A DNA stretch of 60,362 bases, filler included, from Hausera hauseri (taxonomy: Eukaryota), in assembly GCA_046269625.1 (NCBI GenBank). It is 12 parts of 12 records of this genome, joined end to end, with 100 filler letters (N's around TTAATTAATTAA, not from the genome) between each part and the next. Parts side by side here need not be neighbours in the genome. Positions count along the whole stretch, not along the records: positions 18,726 to 22,957 come from JBJURY010686105.1; 11 more parts are not named here. One strand, 5' to 3'. A program made the translations under genes and the position numbers. The notes under the pieces were generated by a model. The model was not told where the DNA came from, searched no databases, and saw nothing but the letters and a program-made list of their open reading frames with translations. Shown piece after piece: positions 182 to 55,786 of this stretch; positions within the stretch are counted from its first letter, which is position 1, and each line of letters opens with the position of its first letter.

Positions 182-3100
182 TTTTATAATAGACGTAATG
201 TAAAAAATGGTGGGGTTTCAATATTTGTCAAAAAGTCTTTGGTCGATCAAGTTTGTGATTTCCCAGTTACAAGTGACGAAATTAATTTCGAATGTTGTGC
301 TATTAAATGCACTAAACTCAACCTAATTATACTCACTGTTTACAGGTCCCCTTCCGGTTGTTTTCAATCATTTCTAGATTACCTATCAAATACGCTATTT
401 CAAATTCCTTCTAATTTTGATACCATTCTCTGCGGGGATTTTAATGTTAATACTCTTGAGAAATCTAACTATATGACATTAGAGTTTATTTCCCAATTAG
501 AATTAGCGGGTCTCCATACTACAATACATTCTGCTACAAGAATTACGAATACAAGCAGTTCTTGTCTAGATAATATATGTACAAACATAGCTAAAAGTAA
601 TTTTCGAGCTTATTGTGTTGAAAACGGACTTTCCGATCACAACGCACAAATATTAGATATTTCTCTTTCTAGGTTAGTCAGCAAAGGTAATGAATTTTAT
701 TATACTTATAAAAGGACTATTAACGGGGATTGTATAAAGAAACTGAAAGAATGTCTGGAAAATGAAACCTGGGAATCATTAAATTGTATAAATGATTTCA
801 ATGAGAAATTTTCAGCTTTCATAAATATATTTCAGAAATATTACTTTACATCTTGTCCCTTATTAAAGAAGAAACAATATAAATTCCAAAAAAACAACGC
901 ATGGATAACTAAAGGTATTATCAAGTCTAGTGCAACATTACGAAATCTTAGAGAACTATCGAAATACAACCCTTCTGTGGAATTTCTATCATATGTAAGA
1001 AATTATAAAAGGGTTTACTCTAAAGTTATTAGGCAAGCTAAAAGAATTCACAATGACAGCCTTATACAAAATTCTAGTAGCTCCAAAGCCTTATGGAACA
1101 TAATAAAAACAGGTACTGGCGTCACGAATAAGGGTACTGAAAAAATCCCAAAATCGGTCATTGACCCACAAACCAGGGAGCCTTTGAGCGGTCCTTCTCA
1201 GGTAGCTGAAGGGTTCAATAGATTCTTTGCCAATTTGGACAATTTCTCGTTCTCCCGTCAAACTAGTCATAGGGTATTGACCCTTAAACATACCATAACC
1301 CACTCTTTATTTTTAGCTCCAGTAGATATACATGAAGTTAAAAACTCTATTTTAAAAATAAAAAGTAAATATTCTGTTGGAACTGATGAAATACCGTCCA
1401 ATATACTTAAGGAAGTTTTGGATTACATTGCGCCACCCCTAACTTCACTTATAAACGAATCTTTCTTATTAGGTGTTTTCCCTACCTGCCTTAAAACTTC
1501 AATAATTACACCACTCCATAAAAAGAATTCAAAAGACGACATGAATAACTATAGACCAATATCCATTCTATCCGTTTTCTCAAAAGTTTTTGAAAAGTTA
1601 ATGCAAGATAGAATAATTACATTCTTTGATAAATATAATATATTGACAAAATTTCAGCATGGTTTTCGTAGGGATATGTCAACTAACACGGCTATATCAC
1701 AATTTTTAGAAAATTTGCTAAAAAACATGGATAATAAGAAGGTTCCATTTTCAATATTTTGCGACTTAAGTAAGGCTTTCGACTTAGTTCCTCATTCTCT
1801 TTTAATGAATAAATTGAACTCGTACGGCATCAGAGGCCCAGCTTACGACTGGCTTCACTCATATTTATCCAATAGAAGTCAAACTGTTGAAATCTCATTC
1901 ATTGAAAATAATGTACAAAAAAGACATAGATCCAAACCTCTAAATGTAAGCCGTGGTGTACCACAAGGTAGTGTCTTAGGGCCCTTATTGTTCATAATAT
2001 TTATTAATGATTTACCAGATAATTTATTTCCATTTAATGTGACCCTATTTGCGGATGATACGACTATTACTATAGCAGATGACAACTTTTCAACATCACT
2101 AAATAATTCTTCCTTGGCAATGGTAAAAATGTCTCAATGGATGGAAAATAATTATTTGATATTAAATACTGACAAAACTAAAGCATTATGCTTTTCGAAC
2201 CGTCAGAACAATCATGATGAGAAAATTCCTTTTGGATTAAACAACTCCATCGATATAGTAAATAACGTTAAATTTTTAGGGATTTTACTTGATAATAAAT
2301 TGTCTTGGGACCAACAAATAGATGCAGTTTGTGACAAAATCAAGCCTTATTGTTTCGCCCTCAAAAGATTAAACAAAACACTAAGTACAAGTGTCCTACT
2401 AACTATTTATTATTCCTATGTTTATTCGCGTTTGAAGTATAACGTAACTTCATGGGGAGCTCTTAAAAAGACTGAGAGAGTATTCCGTTTTCAGAAATGG
2501 GCAGTAAGGTCAATTATGGGGGCAAGAAAATATGACAGCTGCAAACCTATTTTTCAATCACTTAATATTCTGACATTTCCTTGTATTTATATCTATGAAT
2601 GTGGAACTTTTGTTAAAAAGAATGGAAACCTCTTTTCCAGAAATAGTGACTATCATTCATATTCCACCAGACTTAACTACCTGATTCGTACAGAGCAACA
2701 CAGCACGACACGATACGAAAGAGGGCCTTATCATGCCTCTGTTCAAATTTTTAATAAATTACCAAATTCACTAAAGAATCTTGGGGTAAAATCTTTCAAA
2801 AACAATCTAAAAGCTTATTTACTTGAAAGACAATTTTATTCAGTTGATGAATTTTTTTCTGAAAACAATAATTAAGTTATAGTCAAAATTCATATCATTA
2901 CTTTACTTAAAATTTATTTAAAAATTTCATGATGATTATGAGTTTGGTGTAGACTTTTGTGCCTTGTGTGGCAAGAACCCCTGACTTACTTTCAGTCTCA
3001 ATTAAACTGTTACAAATAATTACTTTATAATTTAAAAATAATATATTTTTTGTTCAGCATTTCCTGATACTTGTTTATATTTATTTAGTACTTTCATAAG

Positions 3101-11034: not shown

Positions 11035-12750
<1,716 letters not shown>

Positions 12751-12939
12751 TCAACAGCCAAGCAAAATGGTGTGTTCTTATGTGCGCAAACGGCCGTCGG
12801 TAAACCTGGTTGAGGAAAAACAGATACGCATCTGGCTAGAGTTGATGGGGGTTCGTTGGCGGTTATATCAAGAAAGTAGTTGGTATCAACGTGCAGATCA
12901 TTAGCACCTGTTTGCAAAAAGGGGTAGAATATATATTCA

Positions 12940-13326
12940 ACAACAGATAGCATACAGTCTCAACAAACCTGTGAAGAAGAGATTTCCAACAAGGAAGTAC
13001 CTGTCCAAGTCTGTGGATTGGATGTGGCAAATGGATCTAATGGAGATGATTCCATTGGCTAAAATAAATAAAGGAAACAGATATATTCTAACATGCATTG
13101 ACACATTAAGCAGATATGCTCGTGCAGTACCTGTAAAGAGTAAAAGTGCAAAGGATATATCAGATGCCATTCAAACAATCATGAAAGATGTTCAGCCAAG
13201 ATTTGTGCAGACTGATTTAGGCAAGGAATTTTATAACAGTAAAGTAAAATCTGTGTTTGACAAGTATGGAATCAAACATTATTCTGTGTTTTCAACATAC
13301 AAGGCATGTATTGTTGAACGATTCAA
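12940..13326 (+). CDS. Polinton-type retroviral-like integrase fragment (a different family from 25021 and 50181)
   Basis: AYSLNKPVKKRFPTR, WQMDLMEM, YILTCID, QTDLGKEFYN, KACIVERF. Confidence 0.9.
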
Positions 13327-17604: not shown

Positions 17605-18081
17605 TCATTCGTAATGAATGTGTACAATTTCCATTGTTTCACATCTACATTCTGGACATTGCTGGGTTACTTTAGTGGAACACATTTGACAAACAACGAG
17701 ATGGCTGCACATGAAGAATACCGTATCCACTTTTCTTTGTTTACATAGTACACACATAAACTGACAGACTCGTACTTTGCCCATTATTTTCTCTTTCAAG
17801 TTCGTTAATTCACCGCGTACCTTTTCAACAGTATTAAAGTAATGTGTATCATACAATCGGTGAATGTACATTTGATTTAACACAATAATTAGATTTTCTA
17901 TAGAGCTGCAATCTGCTGTTGTTGTCATCAAGGCTATTGACGCTAAATCTTTCTTAAGTCAAAAATGACCTGCTACTCTCGCAACCAGATCACTATCAAT
18001 TACCAGTCACCATCGTACCAAGTCTGAAATTGATAATCCATCAAAATTTTGCAATTGCTTCAATTGATTAACTATTTCCAT
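17605..18081 (-). pseudogene. RING finger (C3HC4, IAP/MDM2-type) protein, probable Polinton accessory E3 ligase
   Basis: C-terminal CVLCKQRKVDTVFFMCSHLVVCQMCSTKVTQQCPECR; frame extends to ATG 18081 through two stops; TATAAATA about 32 nt upstream. Confidence 0.8.
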
Positions 18082-18625: not shown

Positions 18626-18725
18626 NNNNNNNNNNNNNNNNNNNNNNNNNNNNNNNNNNNNNNNNNNNNTTAATTAATTAANNNNNNNNNNNNNNNNNNN
18701 NNNNNNNNNNNNNNNNNNNNNNNNN

Positions 18726-19023
18726 TTGTTTTGTTGCCTCTTGAAATAAATCGTCAATGACAATAACGTCACCATTGCGTAATCTCTCTGACCAGTTCTC
18801 ATCAAACCCATCAATCACCGTAATAGGTTTCAGTTTACAAAATTCCCCATGTGTCAAACCGGACTTACCATCATCACCAACACCCTCATGCCAGTATATG
18901 TAATTGTATTGCGGTGAATGGAACATGTCACGGTAGTTCTGCAACAGTTTAAACACAAAATGTGTTTTGCCACTTCTACTGGGGCCTACACACTGGAAAA
19001 TTGCATTATTCTGCAGCTTAACC
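18726..19023 (-). CDS. Polinton A32/FtsK-like genome packaging ATPase (N-terminal part)
   Basis: Walker A GPSRSGKT (about 18961-18987) and Walker B VIVIDD. Confidence 0.9.
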
Positions 19024-19109
19024 TAAATAACACAACTTTGCCTCACATGATTTGTTTATAATCATGTTACACGCATATAAATAGCTACTGTATAAACACT
19101 GTTTCCATA

Positions 19110-19514
19110 ATGTTAGCTAATATCAACTATCGCGGACATGTTACCGAGTTTGACATTAACACACTACCTTTTAATCAATGGAAGCCGATGCAGTATGTTC
19201 TCAAGTGTCTACCGGATTTTACACGCATCATATTTCAATCGGCAAAGTGTCGTATTATGAATTGTCACAAACCAATCACAGCTGGCAACAATAACTGTAA
19301 ACTACTACCATTCAGAATTGTCATTGACCAAATCCAATCAATATCGGTAACGACTCATTTAGACTGTCTATCAATAAATCTGTACAAATTAGCAATGACC
19401 GCTGCTGAATGTAAGTATGAACCCAAACTGTTTCCTGCACTGAGACTGACATCGTTTCGCCCACTTCGTATCAATGTGTTTAGAAGTGGAAATACTGTGG
19501 TATCTAGACAGTGA
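19110..19514 (+). CDS. TATA-binding-protein-like protein encoded in the Polinton
   Basis: Both TBP half-repeat motifs are present: IIFQSAKCRIM, and IQSISVT...INLYKL...YEPKLFPAL...INVFRSG (TBP: LIFSSGKMVCTG / YEPELFPGL / LIFVSGKVVLTG). Confidence 0.8.
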   Translation: MLANINYRGHVTEFDINTLPFNQWKPMQYVLKCLPDFTRIIFQSAKCRIMNCHKPITAGNNNCKLLPFRIVIDQIQSISVTTHLDCLSINLYKLAMTAAECKYEPKLFPALRLTSFRPLRINVFRSGNTVVSRQ

Positions 19515-19864
19515 ACTATGAACCAATTATTAATCAGATTAAAAACCATATAAATGTTTTAATGAACAAAAATAATGTACCTTGCACAAAGACAGACTAT
19601 AAATACCATTCCCATGCTCATTCAGACATTACTGCCATGGAAGAAGACAACGATAAAGCAATTCTACTCAATGATGCCAATGATGAAAGCTCAGATTGGT
19701 CGTGGCTGTTTGGCTACAAAAAGGACAATTATAATATCAGACTGCTGGAAATGAAAACAGGACCTGTTCAAAAATTAGAAATACTTTTAATGGCAATTGT
19801 CCGAAGGGCGATTGTCTGGAAACGAAAAAGGAACTTGCTCAGAAATCATCAAAACCGAGGTTAA
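19511..19864 (+). CDS. Unknown Polinton ORF between the TBP-like and KSPIW-family genes (probably frameshifted)
   Basis: 117-aa ORF; its 3' region is homologous to 49120-49230 on the minus strand. Confidence 0.35.
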   Translation: MNYEPIINQIKNHINVLMNKNNVPCTKTDYKYHSHAHSDITAMEEDNDKAILLNDANDESSDWSWLFGYKKDNYNIRLLEMKTGPVQKLEILLMAIVRRAIVWKRKRNLLRNHQNRG

Positions 19865-19959
19865 AAATGGCAAAATGCAACGATTGGAATACATAAACGA
19901 AAATCAAAACCGTCGTGCCAAACATAGACATTTTTACCGAAACGAATTTTTTGCAAGTA

Positions 19960-20345
19960 TGAAATGCATTTTCTGCATAAGCACATACTGATTTCATTGA
20001 ATGATCCCGTATCTCTATGTGCACCCAAGTACAGCTATCGTGTAAAACGGCTTTCGGGTGAAAATTTGGATAAACTTTCTAATGCTCTGCATTAACTAAA
20101 CGTAGATTTAAAGTTGAACGAAAGGACCGTGCAACAGCAATCTGTCGTTTTACCGGCTCAGAAAATGAAATGGTTTGATTTTATCGGTCGTAAAATGTCT
20201 CATGTACCCGTTGATGATTGTGGTTTAAAGTGCCGACTGAATATTTAATTACAAAAATACAAAGGAAAAGCCGGTATCAAAAGCCCGATTTAGCGTGTAG
20301 CTGAAGCACATTTTAATTATCAAAAATTTTTGTTTTACCGTTTTT
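19960..20345 (+). pseudogene. KSPIW-family Polinton accessory ORF (putative SSB-like)
   Basis: ISLNDPVSLCAPKYSYRVKR...CRLNI*LQKYKGKAGIKSPI*RVAEAH; second copy at 48740-49120. Confidence 0.5.
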
Positions 20346-20422
20346 CTTCTTTTTCTTTATTCAACCCAATTAACGAATATAAAGGTACGTGTAATTTTAA
20401 TATTGGCATAAGAATAATCATA

Positions 20423-20490
20423 ATGAATGATATAAAGATTATCTTAACAAACGAAAATGCCTTTGTACCGGGACGTGTTACAGCAAACAG
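20423..20490 (+). pseudogene. dut: dUTPase 5' stub, truncated by an inverted PolB segment
   Basis: MNDIKIILTNENAFVPGRVTAN matches the start of the dUTPase at 48445-48648. Confidence 0.7.
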
Positions 20491-22957
20491 ACCGCCGAAA
20501 CTGCGCCTTACTTGCGTACGTACCCAATCTCTTTTCTCTATTGCATATGTGTACATTGAACCGCTTTTTCATATTTTCCACTGTTTTTCCGTACAGGGAA
20601 TTGTTTTTCAGTTTGTAGTAGTTCTTTTCGAACTTATGCAAGCTGCGGATCTTTTCTCCGAATTTCCATCTATGTACGCTTTGAATATGGGAGCCTGAGT
20701 AAATCGGATTGCACGATTCAGCTGTGTGACACGTACACCGACCTGCATATAGAACTGTAGTAGACGCCAATGGACCACGTAATTCAGCTTCGATTCATGC
20801 GTCATGAGCAGTTTCTTCACTTTTCAACCTGGCGCACACAGGTTAAATGATGCGACCGGTATATTGTCCAAAACGTCATGCAGCTCATCTGGTACCACAA
20901 GATCGACCTCCATCAGGTATACGACTGAGCCTGCCATGTCTGCTCGTGGTAACCTAACCACTATGTCGTCCAAATATTGTCTATTGACTATCCATTCAAA
21001 TGAACCGCACGGCAAGGGTTGTGAAAGCGCCCAGTCGTAGGGCTTATTAATATCAATATACAGGAATGATGAGGTATCGGTAGCACTGACCTGGTACGTG
21101 TTGACAAATGTCATGCAGCCACGGTTACCAACATGAAACAGTCGGTACATTTCCGGATTTTCCAGTAGCTCAATGTCTAGAGCAGTAACATTAGAGCTGA
21201 CCGAAACTCATTCCAGCCTATCTTCAGCCAATGCTTTCGCTCTAAACACTTCGAACACATCGGGTAATAAGTACACGTCCAGTTTAAGATACTGGAGCAT
21301 GTAATCCAACATATTTCTACAGCCGAGTTCTGTCCAAACCCTCTATGCTTTCTTTTATTCATCCTCTGCAATACCCGTCCATCGCGGCGGTAATTCCTCT
21401 GCTGACCGGAGCCGCTCATACGAAGTTGCAAAGTATTATGGAAATATGCCTTTGCTGCATGACATATGTGCGGGGAACTGTGTCAGTGCTATTGGCTCCT
21501 CTGGCAAGACATTTATTAGCTTTGCCAATAATTCATTGAGAAATTTCAATGAATCAAAGAAGCGTACCTTAAACCGGTTTATACGATCAGACAGTGACAG
21601 GTATTTCTTCATCGTAGTCGGAATTATGGATAGTTCCCAGTGCAAAAATCCGTTTATTGCCCATTTCAAAACGTGGTCAAAATCATAACCCCTGAAGTTA
21701 TGAAATACCACTGGTAAGAATGGCTGCACACGCCGTGCCAAATTTCATGAATTATATGCTGCTCCGAGATATGGAACAATAAAATTACCGTGATCCGATA
21801 CAAGCCGTTCCTGTGCATCAAGCGGTAATATTTTGTGGCACAGATAACATTCATCTGTGAATGCAAACGTCAGGCGTTCGTCTTCATCTGTCTACATCAA
21901 GAGTTTATTGCTATTTCTACTGTACCAGGGTTTCATTTCAGTTTCCACTATGCTTTGCAACTGCTGCAAGAAATCGCGTACACAATTCCATCTGTGGAAA
22001 ACATAATTTTGAGGTTGATCTGCAGCTTTTATTGGGACAACCAACATACCGACGGCGATTTTAATATCTTTTTGGTCATATATGTTGTGCCGTGGTAAGA
22101 TAGCTTCGATAGTTGAACCTGAGTTCCTGTTTGACGGGCATGACATACATTGTGGTTCCTAAAGAATTTCCTCTGCACAGAGTCACATGTTTCTTCCATG
22201 TTGTTTCCGACCTGAATCAATGAAGACATACAGGACGCCATTTACACTGTATCCGTTTTTGGAGGAAATATTTATGCTCCATGTTCAGTAGTCTGTCCAG
22301 ATTTGTCACGGCCACGTAATGGTACTTTACTTTTTGTTCCAGTCGCAAAAAATATACTGAGCGGCCATTTGGGTTCCGACTATGATAGATTATATCCACA
22401 TGAGGATTTTTGTAAATTTCTTCATCCGCCGGTATTTCTAGGATAGTGTTGTGCCAAAACACGTTGATTGCCACTGTCGGATTACGCCGTTCAAAATCCG
22501 GAATGGATTTCAGTTTCATCCGCATCCAGCCTTCATCGAAATCCAATTAGGAAATATATTTCTGATACTGTTTTGGACTATATGCACTATGTCTGTCCAC
22601 TTTGTCATATTTCAATACCGCCAGAATACTGTAAAGAGAACGATAATCATCGTTAGTATTTTTTACATTCACTACCACCAGAGACTGCTTCAGAGCTACA
22701 GGTATCGCTATGAATGATCGTCCAGACAAATATATTATGTTACTTAACTTTGTTATGATAAAGCAGAGGGTGACAATCCGTATAATTCGCCATCCACTAC
22801 CCTTTTCCCTGTAGTTGACGATTTTCGCCTCGAGCTTTTTGCCAATCTCAGCGATAATATCCTCGATATATGGTACAGCTCGATGTGACAATACCATTGT
22901 TTCCTGTCGCCTTGCACGTTTTCAAATTCTACAAGTGCATAATACTGCACTTTGCAG
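20490..22957 (-). pseudogene. Polinton PolB, family 1
   Basis: VVFHNFRGYD (ExoII), FFDSLKFL, SKGIFP, YIDINKPY, KLKNNSLYGKTVEN; homologous to 13565-16701. Confidence 0.92.
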
Positions 22958-40900: not shown

Positions 40901-42490
40901 TGTTGGTGGCAGTAGAGAGACTGTTGCGCCGGTGTCTATCAGAAAGTTAATGTTTTGTTTTGTTGAAATGACGATTGCTGTTTCCAACTTGAATACATCA
41001 AAGGAAATGTGTCGGCTATGTTTTTGCAAGTTGATGCCTTTGCTAGGACTTGCCATGTATCCTAGCGGTGAAATCTGTTTTTGTAGCTGGTAAGTTTGGC
41101 CTACTGTTTTGTGTGAGCTTCGTAGTGTTGGTCTTATTGTGTGTGTTGTAGGTACAGCCAGGTAGGCATTTTTGTGCTTTTGTGCCAAATTTAGAGGGAT
41201 AGATACAAACGATGTTGCTTGTATTAAAATCGGGGAGTAAAATTTACAACCGATGCAGCATTTCTGAGCATTATTACCAAATTTCCTATGATAATAGCAA
41301 ATAGATGACCGCGCGGGCGAAGTCGACCGTCTTTGACGTTGATTAAATACAGTAGTGGAAGCAGCCCTAGAAAAACCTCGTCGAGGCAGAGTCAATTGGT
41401 TTAATTTTTCGTTTATGTTATTAATTTTCTTCTGTAACATTTAATTTGCCGTGCGTAATTGCGCAATTTGTTGCTGCAGCATTGCACTTTATTGTTGTTT
41501 GTCTGTTGTTAATGCTGCAGAGACAGTTGGTGTTGTATTTGAGTGCAGTACTTCATATCCTTTGTCTGCCAGTTCGGCTAGCTTGTCCAGAGCTGTGGAG
41601 TATTCGACCACAGTAAGCAAAGCTCTTATTTGAAGGGGCAATGCATTTAAAAAGTAGCGACGAATAAGTTCTGGACTGTGTTCAGATGTTACGCCAAGGG
41701 TATTGATGTAAAACAAAGATGTGCGCAAGAATTCAGAAGGCTTCTGTAGTCCCATGGTGTTGTTGTTGAAGAATATTTGAATAACTGAATCGATTGGAGG
41801 TTCAGTAGGCTTGAGAACGGCATTGTAAAGTTGAGTATATGGGTAGGTGAGATGAAGGATGTAGATGATATTAGTAATTTTAGTTTTGATGGAAGCTGGT
41901 AAATTGAAAAAGAGGCTGTTGACTTTGGATAAAGAGTCGACGAAGCCTTGTGATTGGAGGCAGAATTGATGCAGTTTAACCAAGTTTGAGTAGAATTTTG
42001 GCTGTTGAGGAAGTATTCGGTGCAGGGTAAATGAATGAGGAAGGCGTGTTGTGTAGAAGTGCTTGAAGCACGTTTTTTGGGTAAGTAAATGATGGAGATC
42101 TGTGGTTTGGTAAGTTTGTCCAAGGTATCAATTGTGGGTGAAGAATCCATGCCACTACGGATACGGAAGTTAATGTGAAGGCAGACACAAGTTGTAGAAA
42201 GTTGGAGGGGTTCAGCGGAAGGCATTACAGATGTGAGGTAGAAGTCAGAGGAGTGGAGTGAGGTAGAAATGGAGTTGTGAATGGCCGCAGCGTGTAAGTG
42301 TAATGCTGTGCGTGTGTGAATATGTTTATTATTTAAAAAAGGAAGATGTATTAGGGAGAGATGGTATGTCCGGTGCGTGTTGTGGGACGGAAACAAAAGG
42401 TGCCGTCCGACCCAATGGTGGAGGGTGGACGGCCGGGACCTCAGACTCGCCGCGGCGAGTCCCAAATTTCTGGGTAACCGAATTCCCCCT
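37916..42490 (-). mobile_element. Ty3/Gypsy (CsRn1-type) retrotransposon, decayed gag-PR-RT-RH-IN (gag ATG at 42150)
   Basis: gag KPSEFLRTSL/LDKLAELADK and CYYHRKFG..AQKC..GC (CHCC); PR FLIDTGATVSLLP; RT SPWSSPLH, IDLHKAYHQI, MPFGLRNA, YIDD; RH TTDAS, DRELLA; IN ISDQGPQFES, TSPYHPQLNGLLE, GPY. Confidence 0.95.
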
Positions 42491-43295
42491 CAAAGGTCCT
42501 GTAATATTCATGCCAGTGCACAAAACTTCTTTTAGAAAATAAAATGTCAAAGGACTTACAGAAGGACTCAAATAGTTGCACTATAGCAGTAGTATTTGAT
42601 ATCGTCGTAACACCTTTGTTACTTTGTGCCATTTCTGAACTTGGAACAGTAACCGGTGGTTGGCTATTTGTACCTAGTTTAAAAACTGTTGGACACCAAT
42701 TAACAAATTTTATGTCCGTTCTTCTTTTATCTTCAAATATTGCTGAATTTACTTGTTTTGGTGTTACATCACCTCTGTATTTTAAGCAGCAACACATATA
42801 TTTACCTTCTATCAAATTTATATTTATCATTTGACTTTGCTTTTCAAACAAAGCCCTTGTAAGTTCGTGAATTGCCATCTTTTCGTGTTCAGCTCTTCTC
42901 AGTAATATAGGAGCATAATGTATAACAGGGAAATGAATTTATGAACAAGGAACAAGATTTGCTGTTATTTGATCTAAATCAGCATTAAGAAAGCTTTCAT
43001 ATCTTAAAGAAACTGTGAGAGAACTAAAAACCTGAGCCAACACCCTGTTTAAATTGTTATAAATTGGTCTCATGACGTCCAGCATATTATTGCAAATTCC
43101 ATAAACAGCTTCGTTATTAAACATTGAGCAAACTTCTGCTTGTGCAGTCAAAGCATTCATACTCAGAACCGAGTAGTAGAGATCAACAGCAGAAATAGAT
43201 AAATTGTTTGAAGGAGCAACAGCTCTCTCAAATTTAATTATCTTTGTACATTCAACGTTAAGCCTTTCAAGTATTAAAGAAGCAAATCCCGATGA
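42490..43295 (-). pseudogene. Divergent intron-less alpha-tubulin fragment (about residues 146-410)
   Basis: SGFASLILERL, NEAVYGIC, NLNRVLAQ, NLVP.*IHFP, GKYMCCCLKYRGDV.PK.VN, FVNWCPT.FK.G.N.QPP, SNTTAI, KRSFVHW. Confidence 0.92.
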
Positions 43296-43630
43296 AATAT
43301 TCAAACTCAGTAAATATCGAGGCATCTTACAAAATAATGTGAATTTAAATTGCAATTGAAAAATTTACGTACCCGAATAAGAATTATATAGAATCAACCA
43401 GAGAATTCGACCGTGTCGTGTCGGCGAATAATCAACATTTATCTATGATAAAAATCCACCGAGAAATGCACCAAAAATGTGGACCTGATAAAGACGTAAT
43501 TTGTCCAGTAACTGATTGAAACTCAAACACCAATCGTCGTACTTCCAAATTACAGAATAATTCACAGATATTGCACGATATCCATTTGAACTGAAAAATA
43601 ACAATTGTTTGTTTTTCTGAACAAACACAT
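43296..43630 (-). pseudogene. SPG21: Maspardin (alpha/beta-hydrolase fold) fragment, fused in frame to the tubulin fragment
   Basis: GYRAISVNY..IW.YDDWC.SF.QLLDKL.L.QVHIFGAFLGGFL, then LILYNSYSGT*IF...MP, collinear with maspardin. Confidence 0.8.
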
Positions 43631-45029: not shown

Positions 45030-46279
45030 ATGGAAAGTCTTGTTCGACAAGAAATAAACGATATTTATGATGGAGAAGAAAATGGTAAAGAAAATGGATT
45101 GGACGCCATTGAATTGGACAAAGATTTAAATGGTAAAATATTCAATAAATATTCAGTTTCATTGAATATTTTTCATAGATTTGTTAGCTCCAATTGATGA
45201 TGATGCATGGCAGAATATTTTTGAAAGTAGTTTTGTTCGTGGACAATAACATTTTAATAATTATTGGAATTTAGATGCGGATATATTTAATACAGATTTT
45301 GGTGCAAGTAAAATTGATAATCATGAAATACCCCCCACGTCATTTTATAACTACAACAATCAGTATACATCATTAACAAATGCTGCTGACCAAAATACGA
45401 ATTATCCATACAACAATCAAATAATGAATGGCTATCATCAACCAGCATCATTTGATAATCATAATATCCATCAATATCAAAATGGATTATTATACCAATA
45501 TTATCCTGATACGACATCACAATTCTACGTGCCTGCCCAATGTCAATATACATTTCCCACAGAATATCAAATGAATTCTGTGCAAAATAATGTCGTACAT
45601 GAATCAATATTTGACAACCAAACATCATTATATAACAACAATCACGAACTTCATAACATTCAACATGACACAAAAATCCATCATCCATCAGAGAGTTCTA
45701 TGATCACAAGAAGTAATGGTAAACAGTCGAATTTTAGTGGTCCATTGAAGATTCCATTAAAACGAAATTCATTTGTAAAGAACAAAGACGAGAAACGTAA
45801 CGAAAGTAACAAACCCAATAATTTTACTTCATTTCGCAAACGAGGTCGTCCGAGATTACCGGCTGCAGTTTTGAAACAAGAACACATCTGTATTTTGGAA
45901 GAGATTTTTCGTCATGATCATATTGCAAATGGGACTTTGTTGTGGCAGTTCATTTTTTATCTTCTGATGAAGTCCGATGAATTGGAAATGGATTTGGGTG
46001 TTCAATGGATTGATAAGATGAGGGGGGTTTTTAAGGTGAATAACAGTAATTTATTTGCGGCATTGTGGGGTCGTAAGACAGGCAATTTTAACTCAACGTA
46101 CATCAATATGTCTAGAATGTTCAGGTTGGTTCTTCTTCTTTGATTCGTGGTTATGATTGACTTTTATTGACAGATATTATTATAAAAGTGGAATTTTGAG
46201 GAAACATCCAACAGACAGATTATGTTACGTATTTGAAAATGAATACATGCGATGGGCTAGAGAATATGATATGATTTAA
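45030..46279 (+). CDS. Host ETS-domain transcription factor (ELF/ESE-like) with AT-hook; exons 45030-45132, 45188-45226, 45275-46124 and 46174-46279 give 365 aa
   Basis: GT-AG introns of 55, 48 and 49 nt give one open frame; ETS domain GTLLWQFI...W.DK.RGVFK......A.LWG.K.....TY.NMSR..R/YYYK.GIL......RL.Y.F; RKRGRPR AT-hook upstream. Confidence 0.9.
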
Positions 46280-48444: not shown

Positions 48445-48648
48445 CTTTTCCAGTCCGTATTTCGATAACAGTCCGCTGTAATAACTAGGTGGAATCGCCA
48501 ATCGAATCCCAGTCGTTATGCATTTGATTGTGCTGTCCAAAATTGTCGTATTGACATTGGGAAATACGTTGTAGTCTGTACTGTTTGCTGCAGCACGTCT
48601 CGGTACAAAGGCATTTTCGTCTGTTAAGATAATCTTTACATAATTCAT
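48445..48648 (-). CDS. dut: Polinton-borne dUTPase, N-terminal part
   Basis: ENAFVPRRAAANSTDYNV (motif 1 region), TGIRLAIPPSYYSGLLSKYGL (motif 2 region). Confidence 0.8.
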
Positions 48649-48739
48649 TATCATTATTCTTATTTCTATACCAATATTAAAATTACACGTATAGTTATAC
48701 TCCTTAATTGGATTAATAAAGGAAGAAGAACCTCGGAAA

Positions 48740-49120
48740 ACAAAACAACAACAATATTTGTTGATAATTAAAATGTGCTTCAGCCACACGCCAAATCGGG
48801 CTTTTAATATCGGCTTTTTTATATCCTTGCAATTGAATGTTTAGTCGACAATTTAAATCATCATCGCATACATTAGAAATTTTGTGACCTATAAAATCAA
48901 AAGATTTCGTTTTCTGCGCCGGTAAAACGACAGATTGCTGTCGCACGGTCGTTTCGTTTAACTTAAATCCACGTTTAATTGATGTAGAGCATCAGAAAGT
49001 TTATTTAAATTTTCACTCGAAAGCCGTTTTATACGATAGCTGTACTTGAGTGCGCATAGGGACACGGGATCATTCAATGAAATCAGTACGGACGTTTGCA
49101 GAAAATGCATTTCATACTTG
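48740..49120 (-). pseudogene. KSPIW-family Polinton ORF (putative SSB-like)
   Basis: ISLNDPVSLCALKYSYRIKR...CRLNIQLQGYKKADIKSPIWRVAEAH. Confidence 0.5.
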
Positions 49121-49229
49121 CGAAAAATTCGTTTCGGTAAAAATGTCTGTGTTTGGCGCTGCAGTTTTGATTTTCGTTTACATATTCCAGTCACTGTCAT
49201 TTGCCTTTTTAACTTAGTCTGCTGCCCGA

Positions 49230-49615
49230 ATACCGAGTAGAACAATTTTTTCACCGTAAACACATTGACACAAAGTGTGCGAAACAATGTCAGTCTCAGT
49301 GCAGGAAACAGTTCGGGTTCATACGTACATTCAGTGGCTATTGCTAATTTGTACAGATTGATTGATGCGCAGTCTAACTAAGTCGTTACCGTTATTGATT
49401 GGATTTGGTCAATGACAATTACGAATGGTAGTAGTTTACTGTTACTGTCAGCTGTGATTGGTTTGCGACAACCCATAATGCGACACTTTCACGACTGAAA
49501 TATGATGCATGTAAAATACTATAGATATTTATATGTGTGTATATGAGTACTGGTCTGAGAGATTATGCAACGGTAACGTTATTAACATCGACGATAAAGC
49601 CTCGAAACAATCGGA
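49230..49615 (-). pseudogene. TBP-like gene, second copy
   Basis: IIFQS*KCRIMGC, IQSITVT, YEPELFPALRL, VNVF..KIVLLGI (frameshifted). Confidence 0.8.
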
Positions 49616-49714
49616 CTTTAACAACCTGTCTGTGAAGACTAGCGTCTAGGTGGCAACGATTATAAACAAATACGATTCGATGCATCAATCTTCATTCATT
49701 CATTCATTCATTGA

Positions 49715-50040
49715 ATTATGCATTTCAAACATAGTCAACCGTACTTTATTGCTTTGCTTAAAGCACCGTCGAGACATAAACGGAACATGCTGCAATCATT
49801 CCCGCAATTTTAATAGACAATTTGATGAAAATTTTATACAATATCGTTGTGGGTCACGTTGACATTGGTAGTGGAAAGTTGAATTCACTAAAGTATCGAA
49901 GACAACTAATTGTCCTTGCCAACACACGTAGTAAACGACTGAAACGAGAGGTCATATACCAGAAAGATGGCGGATTTCTTTGTGCAATTCTACCTCTTTT
50001 CACATCCTTACTGGTTGGACTCATTGGTTCTGCAGCATAG
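49715..50040 (+). pseudogene. Small Polinton protein with QxGGFL tail
   Basis: KILYNIVVGHV...QKDGGFLCAILPLFTSLLVGLIGS. Confidence 0.6.
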
Positions 50041-50180
50041 TATAAACAATGACGGTAAGTATATGAATATTTAACGATATTGGTCATGGTTTTTATCATT
50101 TTGTCCCAATTTACCGAATCTTTCATTAACGTTTTGTTCTAATTGCTGCAATGCAAACAAGAACGACATCATCGACGACA

Positions 50181-51178
50181 ATGATGGGTGACGTGAGGTT
50201 CGATCCATGTCATTTCGTCGGGTATACTGGCGTCAACAAACTGGCAAAGACTGTCAAACAGATTCGGCAACAGATCCAATGTTGGCTCGGGAAATAGTTA
50301 GTATACAACCTAAACAAAACGATAAGGAGGCGGTTTCCAAGTCGTGCATACCGTGCTGCAGGTGTAAATAATGCACTGCAAATGGATCTGTACGCCAGCA
50401 TCAACGATAAGCATCGGTACATGCTGACATGTATTAATGTGTTTAGTCGTTTTGCACGTGCAATTGCTGTCAAATCCAAATCCGATAAAGATTGCTGATG
50501 CTCTTCACAGATTAACTGAACAACAACAGCCGCCGAAACATGTACAAGTGGATTTGAGTAAAGAATTTTGCAACTGCCATGTCGTATTGGTCTTGAGGCG
50601 GTTCGGTGTAAACCACTACTCGGTGTTTTCACAATACAAGGCTGCACTCGTTGAACGATTTAATCAAACCCTACGCGGCCGACTGAACTAATTCTTTACG
50701 AAACAGTGCAAAAAACGCTTCGTAGATATACCACCGGATATTATCCATGCATACAATTATTCGACACATCGTGGCATAAATGGATTACAACCGGTTGATA
50801 TAATCGATGGTTTGGCCATGTGGCTTTGCCAAAACCGACAACAAGCAGTGAATCGTCGTCCGAAATGTAGAATTTCGAGTCTGCCCACAACGCCATTTAT
50901 CAAGAATTTCAATCAAAACAGGAGCTATGAGGTGTTCCAAATCTCAGCAATGAACACAAAACAATCACCGTCATGTACGTTTTAGAAGATGAGAATAATG
51001 AGGAGATACGTGATAAATTCTACGAACAGGAACTACAGGTATGTCAGAGAAACCCGACGTATATCGTATTCAGAAAATTATACGTTCACACGGCAAAGGT
51101 TTGAATAAACAATATCTCGTCAAGTAGCACGGATACATCAAACCCAGCTGGATATTTGCACCGCAGATTAAAAGATGA
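50181..51178 (+). pseudogene. Polinton integrase with chromodomain
   Basis: Homologous to 25021-26035; QVDLSKEF, KAALVERFNQTLR, KFYEQELQ. Confidence 0.9.
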
Positions 51179-52224
51179 GCACTTACTTGGTACTTGATAG
51201 TGATACGTTATTATCACAGAATGACAACAATAGAGCCGCACGGTTTACCATGGACTTAGACAGACCGCTCGAATTACACACGAGAACCTGGAAAGTGACT
51301 ATCACGGAATTCACATTTACATTTTCACCCAAATCAATACGTGAGAAAAGCGGTATTTACTTTACCCGACTAGAAAAGTACTTTATTTCAAGCCGTTTAC
51401 AGTTAATCCGAGACTCTAACAAATAAATTCTTCGCAATTATTAGCGAAAACATTTGTCAGTTTATGCTTATTTTTCAAACTACTATATGAAACTAACACA
51501 TCGACATCCCATGGAATTTCAGTTTGAATCCATAGCTCATGCTCAGACATGGGTTTTCATCAGTCAATGTACGCTCGAAAGGTCTACGGCTAGGTGTACA
51601 TGTTATAATTGGTGAAAAATGGGACATTTCCACTAATGTGACAACCGCAGTTGTAGTGAACTGAATTCGATCAGAATCAGTCTTTCGCTCGTATATTGTA
51701 CCATATGACTTATTTATGGAAACGGAACTAGAATTGTGTGAATATGTGAAGAAAACGGCTACATTAGCTGTAAAGCAATATGAAATAAATGCAGATGGTC
51801 ATATTTCGCTTACACTACATGACAATGTTACGTATTTTGGCTTTGATGAATTATTGGCTCGGAATCGGGGTTTTTCAAAACGTGAATTCTATAGAACAAT
51901 TGTTGGAAAATCTATTGTTGTCAAATACAAACTGTAACTCTATGGAGCATTTCATAGAATCAACATTTTAACGGACTTTTGCGAATCCGTACTCGTTGGT
52001 GAAGAACGTAAACAACTACTGACTTTATCGAACTGGATTCTAACACGTACAAAACATCGGGTGAAACTCTTCGCGTTAATATGCTCAGACCCATGTACTT
52101 ATTAGTGTCTCACAATGTTGTGCACAGTATTTCCGTGTATATGCTTGATGGAATTTGGGAACCCATTAAATTTCTGTTTGGGTCAACGACACATTTGACG
52201 TTACATTTTCGACGTCGTCGATAA
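51175..52224 (+). pseudogene. Polinton minor capsid protein 1
   Basis: YLVLDSD...NRAARF...WKVTITEF; ends HLTLHFRRRR. Confidence 0.8.
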
Positions 52225-52275
52225 TAAACAAACTGCATCATCATTGTCATCGCTATCATTATCATCACCGATATC

Positions 52276-53106
52276 ACGAATATTTACATGGTATTGCCGA
52301 GCAACAGTGATCCGACGACTCGTCCGAACAATTCAGCCATTGAATACGTTGTAGATTGGAAGAATCCTTTGGATTTATCTGGAAAATTAGAGGTTACACT
52401 GACGAAATTTAACTTTCCCTACGCACCAGTGACATTGAAAGGTAGTATGAAAATAACGTAAACCAAGACTGTTACTGAAACAAAGACACATTCTTGTCCT
52501 CTGACACTTATTAACAATAAAATAACAGTTGGAAAATCGGCCACTTGCACGTCCAGTAAAAAGTACAAATTATAAGGCAAGATCGGTGTTTTTATTTTAA
52601 GGAAAAAAATACATTTTGTGGAAAATTTTGAATTTACTGTCATTTTTGAGTCCTCAAAAGTACAAGGAGATATTTAAAGTTTTCGAGTCAGATGCAAGGT
52701 GGCACATTGAATTTGAACTGGTTAAGAATGTTGTCGACATTTTGGACAAAGCTTTGACCATGGCATTGGGTTTTGAAAAACACAGGTTTGAAACATTGAA
52801 TAGGAAGATAACATATGTTGCTGGACTGAGTCAAATGTACATTTATGTGACCGTCGCGGAACCGATTTTGGTCGGTGGAGTACGTGTACCGCTACTTCTT
52901 GCAATTAATCCGGAAAGCAGCAAGCATACTGCTGGTGATAATGTCACTGTCAAGCTCGATAATCCAATGTACCTGCCTGTGGCAACTACATTTATAAACA
53001 TTTTTTAAGTCAATATCAAATGTGACGCTAGCTACTTTACTGAATTTCCGTACGGTACCACAACCAGTCTAACTCTTCATTTCGTCGAAAACAACAACAT
53101 GATTGA
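52276..53106 (+). pseudogene. Polinton minor capsid protein 2
   Basis: IYMVLPSNS...; GLSQMYIYVTVAEPILVGGVRVPLL...NPMYLPV...LTLHFRR. Confidence 0.8.
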
Positions 53107-53368
53107 TTCTGATATTGTTTCCATTTACAGTAAATCTCAGCTGGGCGGTGAACTTCCTTATTTCTTCGGTAAAGAGTATGGCTTTGGATGGTTGCGTACA
53201 TTGGCACGTTTAGCCTTTCCGGTGTTGAAGTGTATTGGAGCCGTGGCAGCAAAAACAGCACAGGATCTACTATATGAAAACAAATCGATTTTACCACTAC
53301 TGAAGAAACACGCCTTGACAGAAATAAAAAGCGCTGCACCAGGAGTTGTCGAATCAGTCAAAAAATAA
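53099..53368 (+). CDS. Small conserved Polinton core/membrane-active protein upstream of the major capsid gene
   Basis: QLGGELPYF.G.EYGFGWLRTLARLAFPVLK, a Gly-rich amphipathic motif typical at this position. Confidence 0.65.
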   Translation: MIDSDIVSIYSKSQLGGELPYFFGKEYGFGWLRTLARLAFPVLKCIGAVAAKTAQDLLYENKSILPLLKKHALTEIKSAAPGVVESVKK

Positions 53369-53462
53369 TTCGCTGGTAGTGGCTTGAGAAAACGTGGTTG
53401 ATCAGCTAGCTTTTTAACTATAAACAAACGTCGTCCTTGTACGATTTTCGATTGACAGATAA

Positions 53463-53900
53463 ATGGCATCTGCAAAATCTGAATTGTGTATATTTGACAA
53501 CGGCGCACCACAAGTTGTTATTGACAATGCGACATTTGAAGAAATCTACCCCGTTGATTCTCTTTAAACGGATGATAACATTGACATTCAATTTATCGTT
53601 ATAGCATCGGACAATGAATATCTCGATTTTAACGATACGCTACTGTATGTAAACGTCATTTTTAAAAAGGATACATCACCCGTTCTCTCTGCAACAGACA
53701 CTGTCTCACCGGCCAATGACCTTTTCCTCATACTGTTCAAGGTGGCTTTATCGACTTTAAACAGCATCAAAATTCAAGGCAACACCAGTCTGTACAGTAT
53801 CAAAACACTCACTGAAACAGCTCTGAATTACAGTGCATACACGAAAACAACTCATTTGACGGAAACCATCGGATATAATGCCACTGCAACAAACCGTCAG
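53463..53900 (+). pseudogene. Polinton major capsid protein N-terminal part, truncated by a PolB segment
   Basis: MASAKSELCIF...EEIYP...ASDNEYLDFNDTLLYV; homologous to 27729-28133. Confidence 0.88.
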
Positions 53901-55786
53901 ACATGCTGTAATGGAGAAATATTACGGCATTACATATGATGGGGCTCAATTTTATATATTCCCTGATTGTCAAGTTATGTCAGGTGTCCAATTCACAGAA
54001 TTCCGGAGACAACATCAGCATCATCTGTCATTGTTAACCAAATCAAAAGAGTCCATATTGCAAGATCATGGGAAATGACCAATATGGTGAAACAATTAGT
54101 ATCAGCCCAGCAAATACCGACAACAGCTCAACAGTCACTTAAACGTCCAATGAAACAAATCCCATCAAACAGTCAGCAAAGAAACCAAGATGGGACAATG
54201 GAAAACAAAACTTTATTGTTCATTCTGTCCTTGCTAATAATGATGTGAATTTGTGTTCTGATGTTGCGCCTGACCAACTTGTTTTCACTAGACCATCTGA
54301 GGAAATTTTGACAACTTTGGACTTGTATGCTTCGAAATTTTCTTCCACTAAGGTTCAATATGGTTTAGAAATTCTTTTTGAGAATGCTGAGGTTGATACA
54401 AAACAATCTTATATTTTACATACAGCTGTCCCTTATGAGCACACTTTTCTACAATCTGTTGCCGATAATTTACAAGAGCGAATAGAGAATTTTGCAGAAA
54501 TGGGTAGTGGGAGGAAAGTAGTTAAGATCTTGAAGTTCTGTTTCTATATAGTTAAGACAAGCCCACTACTTTATTTGTCTGGTAAGTCTTATTTACCAAC
54601 ACCTGGCGCATTAAAAAATGCTGTTATTAATGTACAGAATTACGACAATTTGCGCTTTCTGTATTCGATTCTGGCAGTGATAAAGTATTCTTCTTTTGAT
54701 AGTCACAGATATAGAGTTAGCAATTACATTCCTTTTTTGAACGAGCTGAAATATTCTTTAGATAACATCCCTATGAAAATTTGTAACATAGTTAAATTTG
54801 AGAGGCAAAATCCACATATTTCAATTAATGTGTTTTTGTTTCATGAGGAGAATGATGTAGATTATGATGAGGATATTGTGAAAAATCCATTCGTTGATGT
54901 TTCATATCGTACAAAAATCCGAATGGTACTGTTGTTAATTTACTGATTTTAGAAAATGACAACAACTTTCACTACGTAGCTGTACCAAATCTTAAGCGGC
55001 TTTTGAATAGTAAAAAAATGCAAATTCGATGCAATCATTGATTTGAGAAATGTTTGCGTGTATTTAGGCTTGACACTGCTTACCTGAAACATTTACCAAT
55101 GAATTCATCTTGCTCCACATGCATGACTTTGTATAAGATACCAGAAAATAAGTTTTGTGAATTTAAGAACTGAGCCAAATCTATAAGTCCTCCTTTCGTT
55201 TTGCATGCTGACTTCGAATCTGTTCTATGTCCTGATGATAAAGTTAAACATATTCATATGCCTGTCGCCGCTGGTCTCTTGTTAGTGCCCCCAACAGGTA
55301 TTGAATACAGGCAATTTGTTGGTGAAAATTTTATTGACGATTTTTTGGGCTTCGTTGGAAATTGTTAAGAAATTTGTTTTCCCGTAGTATGAAAATGCTA
55401 AGAAGCCAATGATTCTATTAACCTCTACTGAATGACAACTGTTTAAAAACGCCACAGCATGTTATCTTGTAAGAAAATGGTTCTGACTTTGTTCGAGGTC
55501 ACTGCCATGTTACGGGTACATTCCCTGGTCCAGCTTGTAATAAATGTAACATGGCACGTCAAATTAGGTATAATTTACTTGTTATTTTTCATAACTTTCG
55601 TGGCTACGATCTCCATCATATCTTGAAACACGCATTAAATAAATTTGGCACATGGAATTTAGTGTTATTCCTCAATAAACAGGAATTTTTAACCATGCAG
55701 ACAAATATACAGTGTTCATATAAAAAGTGTGTTAGTATTCGCTTTATTGACTCGCTGCAATTTTTACCAGCGTCATTGAAGACTTT
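53900..55786 (+). pseudogene. Polinton PolB N-terminal half, family 3
   Basis: SGKSYLPTPGALKNAVINVQNYDNLRFLYSIL, FERQNPHISINVF, HADFES, HCHVTG.F.GPACNKCN, IFHNFRGYD, FIDSLQFL. Confidence 0.9.

Follow-up and report, generated by a model that had tools for sequence, protein, structure and literature searches.

The window, a stretch of 60,362 nucleotides from Hausera hauseri, holds two degraded copies of a gene for a TATA-binding-protein-like (TBP-like) protein that belongs to a Polinton/Maverick lineage. Judging from sequence, the intact form of this shortened TBP probably acts as an element-specific late-promoter factor, which would work through the 8-bp word TATAAACA together with host TFIIB and RNA polymerase II (Pol II). 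By homology, the gene is a member of a large family of ~150-aa proteins.

The window consists of 12 contigs of 4.0-7.3 kb each, joined by artificial N44-TTAATTAATTAA-N44 linkers (n = 11, e.g. 18626-18725). As the contigs are unconnected, gene order is valid only inside 18726-22957 (piece 5, with TBP-like copy 1) and 48445-55786 (piece 11, with copy 2), and is meaningless across the linkers. The pieces without a TBP-like gene contain gypsy-type retroelements (Pfam), and an open 897-aa LINE endonuclease-RT frame was found by Pfam at 182-2872 (plus strand). Broken tubulin fragments with an adjoining gypsy element and an Ets-domain ORF are also present (42444-43364, minus strand; 45250-46140, plus strand). 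Ets is an animal-specific domain family, and from this ORF the host of the window DNA is likely an animal.

Copy 1 (19110-19514, plus strand) is an open but degraded frame of 134 aa, with the last helix not encoded in frame. Both TBP half-repeat signatures reported in the preliminary description are readable in its translation, and the ORF scores above the gathering cut-off of the Pfam TBP family PF00352 (30.7 bits, E=2.8e-7, cut-off 22.9), with the match confined to the second half. All 35 of its 35 PDB sequence matches are TBP or TBP-containing chains. From about 19500 the ORF leaves the family frame, the final ~25 residues being read in another one: compared with the intact relative P0003, which is 70% identical to copy 1 and itself reaches 62.9 bits with PF00352, residues 1-124 lie in one frame and 126-148 in another. 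The latter segment, the C-terminal end of the family, was located out of frame at 19499-19567 on the plus strand (tblastn, 70% identity over 23 aa). Copy 1 also deviates at several near-invariant family positions, including the loss of one of the two acidic stirrup positions. Copy 2 (minus strand) lacks its first third and contains internal stops and a frame change; it covers only family residues 35-131 (49515-49217, compared with P0003), and its open part reaches 17.9 bits with Pfam TBP, under the 22.9 cut-off. The two copies share 86.5% identity over 275 nt (19208-19482 and 49525-49257). The second copy announced earlier is thus real, but it spans 49217-49525 and does not extend to 49615, and both copies are broken. 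Because both are damaged, the consensus motifs quoted for them are a blend of two relics and not the sequence of one gene.

On piece 5, copy 1 is divergent from the 5' part of an A32-like packaging ATPase (18726-19043, minus strand, cut by the contig end), as originally described; this ATPase is 54-59% identical to those of two related loci, L010 and L006, both of which match Pox_A32. A canonical TATA box, TATAAATA, lies 34 nt ahead of the copy 1 start codon (19076-19083, plus strand). The word TATAAACA occurs twice in the intergenic region, 19 nt ahead of the copy 1 start (19091-19098, plus strand), which is closer than its usual spacing, and 38 nt ahead of the start of the ATPase open frame (19053-19060, minus strand). 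Behind copy 1 are a remnant of the small gene orfF (19949-20300, plus strand, end approximate; E=5.6e-5) and a degraded PolB-like gene (20486-22414, minus strand), convergent on copy 1 and matching the L010 PolB-like ORF with E=7e-143. Between them, behind the orfF remnant and fused to the end of the PolB remnant, are ~20 codons of a dUTPase-like 5' end (20430-20490, plus strand, limits approximate), recognized by a DNA match to 48581-49213. Contigs of one sequencing run match piece 5 in large number (23,247 short contigs at ≥85% identity, from a run that may be the source sample and is not independent), which fits a high-copy family.

Piece 11, on which the ORFs of L010 were mapped as on piece 5, shows the order copy 2, weak ATPase remnant, orfB, integrase, capsid-like genes, and PolB fragment, so the adjacency of copy 2 to integrase and capsid-like genes on one contig holds. 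The possible ATPase remnant is short and adjoins copy 2 (49551-49643, plus strand; weak, E=4e-4). A TATAAAC box (49661-49667, plus strand) precedes orfB (49718-49998); another, at 50041, is followed by a degraded retroviral-like integrase (50190-51154, plus strand) homologous to the rve-matching integrase of L010. Probable remnants of the minor and major capsid genes, together with orfC, occupy 52057-53900 (plus strand), with TATAAAC boxes at 52993 and 53419. These genes, which we take to be capsid genes from their position, length, and motifs, gave no informative Pfam or PDB match; the capsid-like ORFs have fitting size and position and are conserved among L010, L019, and the window. Downstream of copy 2 are an orfF counterpart (48716-48991, probability 91%) and a degraded dUTPase 5' part (48445-48648, minus strand, cut by the contig end), which was missed by Pfam and the motif scan and was assigned by phmmer (24 of 28 PDB matches named dUTPase, best E=0.003). 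The dUTPase traces are this part and the ~20 codons behind copy 1, and the dUTPase cluster said to lie downstream of the TBP-like gene does not exist as such.

Among the Polinton core genes, the retroviral-like integrase (rve) scores above the Pfam cut-off in window piece 6 and in L010, its homologue adjoining copy 2, and the A32-like ATPase (Pox_A32) does so in L006, L008, and L010, its homologue lying beside copy 1. The adenovirus-like protease (Peptidase_C5) is above the cut-off in L017 and L019, with no match on the window contigs. For the protein-primed PolB, a window fragment on piece 8, a paralogous copy, reaches E=1.9e-5 with DNA_pol_B_2, just below the cut-off; long ORFs of L010 and L019 match the window PolB remnants, and Pfam detects only Endonuclease_7 in them. 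No terminal inverted repeat or other element end was found on piece 5 or piece 11, and L010 and L019 likewise show no long inverted pair when their ends are compared; all of these contigs are partial. Two ORFs stand near Polinton remnants on other pieces: a RING-finger ORF (17608-17958, minus strand; zf-C3HC4_3, E=3.5e-8), flanked on piece 4 by remnants of PolB and orfD, is probably a further Polinton accessory gene, and an ORF with DEAD-box helicase and Myb-like domains (11760-12698, minus strand) lies on piece 3 beside an integrase fragment of Polinton type (12905-13324).

A single-sequence search returned 6 relatives of 146-187 aa, and a profile search gave 546 matches among 8000 scored candidates; 49 representatives were obtained at E≤1e-30 among 1.84 billion sequences in a profile search. 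No locus came from IMG/VR, which was scanned with queries for TBP, long-form TBP, the ATPase, and the capsid. Out of 20 loci fetched, 19 were kept, L020 being rejected as spurious (13-aa match). A Polinton core gene is present in 6 of the 19 (L006, L008, L009, L010, L017, and L019, with L008-L010 near-identical); most loci are short. A further nine have small genes shared with the core-gene loci or lying beside such genes, and four short ones contain no recognised element gene. In L019 the TBP-like gene is found between the protease and orfD, within the core block, while in L010 it precedes the ATPase-integrase block. The presence of intact genes at differing positions of the core blocks indicates that the gene is part of the element and shifts its place there. 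The dN/dS values of intact loci are 0.05-0.45 in 17 of 19 unsaturated pairs (0 in one, undefined in one), and by this measure the intact genes are under purifying selection. In a 65-row tree, a 100/100 branch of length 1.12 divides the 53 family rows from the 12 of cellular type, with the bootstrap not fully settled and the cellular-type rows being unlabelled database proteins with no named TRF or giant-virus TBP among them. Both the core-block positions in L019 and L010 and this branch bear out the earlier view of an element gene distinct from the host TBP.

The related loci show several other features. L019:1-12415 is a near-complete, apparently intact Polinton core on a contig assigned to a bacterial MAG, where it is most likely contamination from a eukaryote; the genome behind it has no ATPase beyond the L019 one. 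Minor-capsid-like genes number one in L019 and two paralogues in L010. The ~115-aa orfF family lies near the TBP-like gene in 9 of the 19 loci (L001:362-706, L003:2738-3082, and L006:1613-1969 among them), is not always adjacent to it, and has no counterpart in L019 over its 12.4 kb. With GT...AG introns visible in the sequence, orfF seems to represent exon 2 of a spliced gene; it received no Pfam assignment and no usable Atlas match, and an ssDNA-binding OB fold is an unconfirmed guess. A conserved Cys/His-rich ORF of ~120 aa, orfG, is also found near the TBP-like gene (L003:1636-1995, L004:334-672, L006:2701-3093, L007:267-611), without a Pfam match in the two members scanned. On the left side of the L010 element is a ubiquitin-conjugating (E2) ORF (L010:225-722, minus strand; UQ_con, E=1.7e-12) with a TATAAAC box ahead of it and two adjacent hairpins with 45- and 35-nt arms upstream (L010:794-957). 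In L015, a leucine-rich-repeat ORF with a signal-peptide-like start (1304-1843) is located two genes past the TBP-like gene.

The structural description refers to a model of P0003 and not of the window copies. With a 144-row alignment the model reached a pLDDT of 97.2 (67 for a first fold on an 18-row alignment). In Foldseek the best E value is 6.6e-9, and 44 of the 44 PDB matches listed at E≤0.001 are TBP or TBP-containing chains; in VIA, 147 residues align to 7egb_P with Z of 13.9 and rmsd of 2.7, and the next fold has Z of 6.7. Both methods match TBP over the whole length, in agreement with the fold assignment made at the outset, and the intact relative is predicted to form a two-lobe TBP saddle from end to end. 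Residues 1-149 of the model correspond to residues 66-240 of yeast TBP, which means that ~26 residues are missing. Their location is in the N-lobe, where the model has no helix of four or more residues ahead of residue 84. The median H1 segment is 16 residues against 26 and the median H2 segment 20 against 33, in 23 short rows chosen by hand, most of them already selected for the stirrup motif, and in 12 cellular-type rows, respectively, and the C-lobe segments are equal. The H2 segment is ≤24 aa in 171 of 226 covering matches. Helices H1 and H2 of the N-lobe are thus predicted to be missing from the short forms of the family, and "shortened", as the protein had been called, is apt for the model. 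The binding site of TFIIA, TAF1, Brf1/2, and Mot1 is formed by basic residues, mostly of the N-lobe H2, according to the available text of Ravarani 2020 (PMC7221094). Longer relatives (160-185 aa; P0207, P0218, P0222, P0240, P0258, and others) have N-lobe segments of helix length together with the same DNA-face signature. The short forms cluster in the 65-row tree at moderate support (81/83), which suggests that the DNA face may have been remodelled first and the helices lost later.

Residue conservation was counted in a 251-row unfiltered set, reduced to 226 rows by removing 25 non-covering ones, using the ungapped rows at each position; 13 cellular-type rows, the window copy, and the cluster members P0008-P0029 were left out. 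The figures are inflated, as the rows were gathered with the family profile, and rows and loci are also non-independent. The two acidic C-lobe residues that contact TFIIB are kept in 218 of 221 and in 221 of 221 rows. Three of the intercalating phenylalanines (yeast numbering) are kept, F116 in 226/226, F190 in 219/221, and F207 in 218/218 rows, and the fourth is lost, the F99 position being Pro in 214/216. Further changes of the DNA face are V122 to Arg (223/226), T124 to Met (226/226), and L205 to Asn (216/218). Of the symmetric Asn pair at the saddle centre, N69 is kept in 199/209 rows, while N159 is replaced by Ser or Thr in 222/226. In short forms, I194 is replaced by Arg (158/168) and V203 by Cys (160/168), so that positions 194, 203, and 205 are all altered in the family. 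The same positions carry the specificity changes of yeast TBPm3 (I194F, V203T, and L205V), located near the second base pair in the accessible part of PMC1636458. Changes of the TBPm3 type map to box position 2, where TATAAACA is canonical, and hence do not match a change of the word. TATA is kinked at steps 1-2 and 7-8, as given in the available part of PMC10005294; taken together with the TBPm3 positions, this would place the C-lobe on the 5' half of the box and the lost N-lobe phenylalanine at the 7-8 kink.

The candidate target of the protein emerged from the upstream regions. Among the 7-mers of 45 upstream windows, TATAAAC ranks first (15 of 45, versus 1.0 in shuffled sequence). L010 contains 12 copies of it (5.35 expected) and L019 contains 11 (4.73 expected), with 1 in 200 shuffles as high in each case, and 11 of the 11 L019 sites are on the core-gene strand. 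Over the whole window it is not enriched (17 versus 15.1 expected); on the Polinton pieces of the window, 10 of 12 sites are, by inspection, in the sense orientation and upstream of an ORF. In four core blocks, two of them from the window, the 8-bp TATAAACA has 22 sense and 0 antisense occurrences, with 1.76 expected per strand. In the same blocks the canonical TATAAATA is found 4 times in sense orientation (3.4 expected), and TATAAAAG and TATATAAA are likewise not enriched. Of 29 non-TBP genes, 20 have the word at ≤130 nt ahead of them, as against 1 of the 15 TBP genes (Fisher p=9e-5, for genes that are not independent). Ten of the 20 distances to the start codon are 35-39 nt, with some start codons chosen by hand, which fits an element in the TATA position followed by a short leader. 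The related TATAAACG retained 27% activity in Arabidopsis protoplasts, as reported in the part of PMC10005294 available; by analogy, host TBP can use a TATAAAC-type box weakly, and the TATAAACA box may be independent of the TBP-like protein.

In the sequence of events that we propose, the intact protein would bind the TATAAACA word and then recruit host TFIIB and Pol II, which would transcribe the packaging and probable capsid genes. The remodelled DNA face of the N-lobe might read the C at box position 7, and the kept acidic stirrup would make host TFIIB the partner. The loss of H2 would remove the docking surface for host TFIIA, TAF1, Brf1, and Mot1, allowing escape from TFIID/TFIIA/Mot1 control. 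The TBP-like gene would be expressed early and the boxed genes switched on late; counter to such a switch, copy 1 carries TATAAAC ahead of its own gene. For the redirection of host Pol II put forward in the preliminary description, the TATAAACA box and the conserved TFIIB contacts, both read from sequence, provide indirect support, but the window copies are not supported as functional. The broader proposal, of a one-gene late switch in a widespread lineage of animal Polintons, in which the smallest functional TBP, its helices lost stepwise, reads a TATAAACA box of its own and works directly with host TFIIB and Pol II, is held more tentatively, and we lean slightly towards doubting it.

The near-invariant TFIIB stirrup, combined with the absence of the TFIIA surface, would also suit a decoy or competitor that ties up host TFIIB or TATA boxes unproductively and dampens host transcription, while host TBP, which uses TATAAAC-type boxes weakly, reads TATAAACA. 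One intercalating phenylalanine is lost, and TRF2, which is without such a phenylalanine, cannot bind TATA according to the accessible text of PMC10005294. However, a pure TFIIB sink would have no need of the three phenylalanines and several new DNA-face residues that hardly vary in the family, and the word which the element favours over canonical TATA is one that host TBP uses weakly; we regard a decoy as unlikely. Quite unlikely, in our judgement, is a true initiation factor that relies on an element-encoded partner (a divergent TFIIB or a replacement for the helices) and not on host TFIIB alone. Most viruses bearing a TBP also encode a TFIIB, as stated in the available part of PMC7221094, the loss of two helices may expose a face in need of a partner, and orfF is a candidate by its proximity in nine of 19 loci. 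Nevertheless, the stirrup is conserved in the cellular style, without the drift of co-evolving viral pairs, the model is confident as a single chain, and orfF is neither always adjacent nor present in L019. No Pfam match to TFIIB was obtained among the scanned ORFs of these incomplete elements, in which a divergent or spliced gene could escape Pfam, and no RNA polymerase gene was seen in the related loci examined.

The box itself could be read by a host factor, either TBP, which keeps some activity on such boxes, or a forkhead protein, with the TBP-like protein having another DNA role, for example at replication origins or in packaging. The forkhead consensus is RYAAAYA, and TATAAACA also fits it. 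Yet the four core blocks show no enrichment of GTAAACA, with 3 sense sites and 1 antisense site for 2.7 expected, and when the leading T is dropped, ATAAACA occurs on both strands (7 sense, 4 antisense), whereas TATAAACA is strand-specific and clusters at 35-39 nt ahead of start codons; with the TFIIB-contact residues also kept, we find this reading very unlikely. A host origin of the gene, as a TBP paralogue or pseudogene placed by chance beside Polinton debris, is hardly credible: both window copies are broken and their contigs lack element ends, as such an origin would have it, but intact single-ORF relatives lie within core blocks of differing gene order, they are under purifying selection, and they group apart from cellular-type TBPs, so that L010 and L019 largely refute it.

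Seen against the known systems, the preferred reading of an element-specific late-promoter factor concerns a protein that shares the two-lobe saddle of cellular and archaeal TBPs (PF00352; 1cdw, 1ytb, 7egb, 2z8u, and 1mp9) in the model, with Z of 13.6-13.9. The family resembles cellular TBP in its complete C-lobe, acidic TFIIB stirrup, three of four intercalating phenylalanines, and first Asn, and differs from it in being ~26 residues shorter, lacking H1/H2 in the model, and having 18-28% identity, as well as in the replacement of the first Phe by Pro, of the second Asn by Ser/Thr, and of non-polar DNA-face residues by Asn/Arg. Three canonical features of TBP are lacking, namely H1/H2 in both lobes (model), the four intercalating phenylalanines, and the symmetric Asn pair; a TBP homologue by Pfam score and fold, the protein is best described as a variant of viral TBP. 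The TBPs of large DNA viruses (giant viruses, poxvirus factors, and herpesvirus BcRF1/UL87/ORF24) share the fold (BFVD best E=3e-7) but are 186 to >1000 aa long and 8-20% identical to the family. In most of them, as far as the sources available go, the acidic stirrup is gone and the virus supplies a TFIIB itself, whereas the family keeps the stirrup; in the accessible part of PMC7221094, the first acidic position is ~40% conserved in viral TBPs, which are mostly accompanied by a viral TFIIB. According to that text (Ravarani 2020, PMC7221094), the main text of which does not contain the word "Polinton", viral TBPs have generally lost the regulatory signature of the N-lobe; the present family differs from the TBPs of large DNA viruses in having entire helices deleted and in being carried by a small element. 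Herpesvirus TBP-like proteins direct host Pol II to late promoters, according to the part of PMC12529657 available.

With the Polintons/Mavericks (adintoviruses), the carrier shares the PolB-like gene, the chromodomain retroviral-like integrase, the A32-like ATPase, the adenovirus-like protease, and the probable capsid genes. The core gene list of Polintons does not include TBP, and the TBP-like gene is an accessory gene of variable position. That it is uncatalogued in Polintons is not supported, as the label "TBP" already appears on the map of MELD viruses with adintovirus-like PolB in Starrett et al. 2021 (PMC8502044, Fig. 5 legend; bioRxiv 10.1101/697771). In the parts of that source available, this is a legend entry for a TBP-like gene in a Polinton-like genome, which may be of the same family; they contain no structure, distribution, or promoter analysis of the gene, and one supplement file gave no match. 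The literature search, which did not cover subscription papers, figures, and bioRxiv supplements, returned no analysis of a Polinton TBP, its helix loss, its kept stirrup, or its promoter word.

To our knowledge, the timing of Polinton capsid genes, and hence of particle production, is an open question. A named factor and an 8-bp box make the proposal directly testable and offer a promoter signature for locating late genes. The window copies are relics, and the value lies in the intact relatives: a host-compatible TBP of altered specificity is a possible tool, and a natural TBP without the regulatory helices would define the minimal TBP-TFIIB core.
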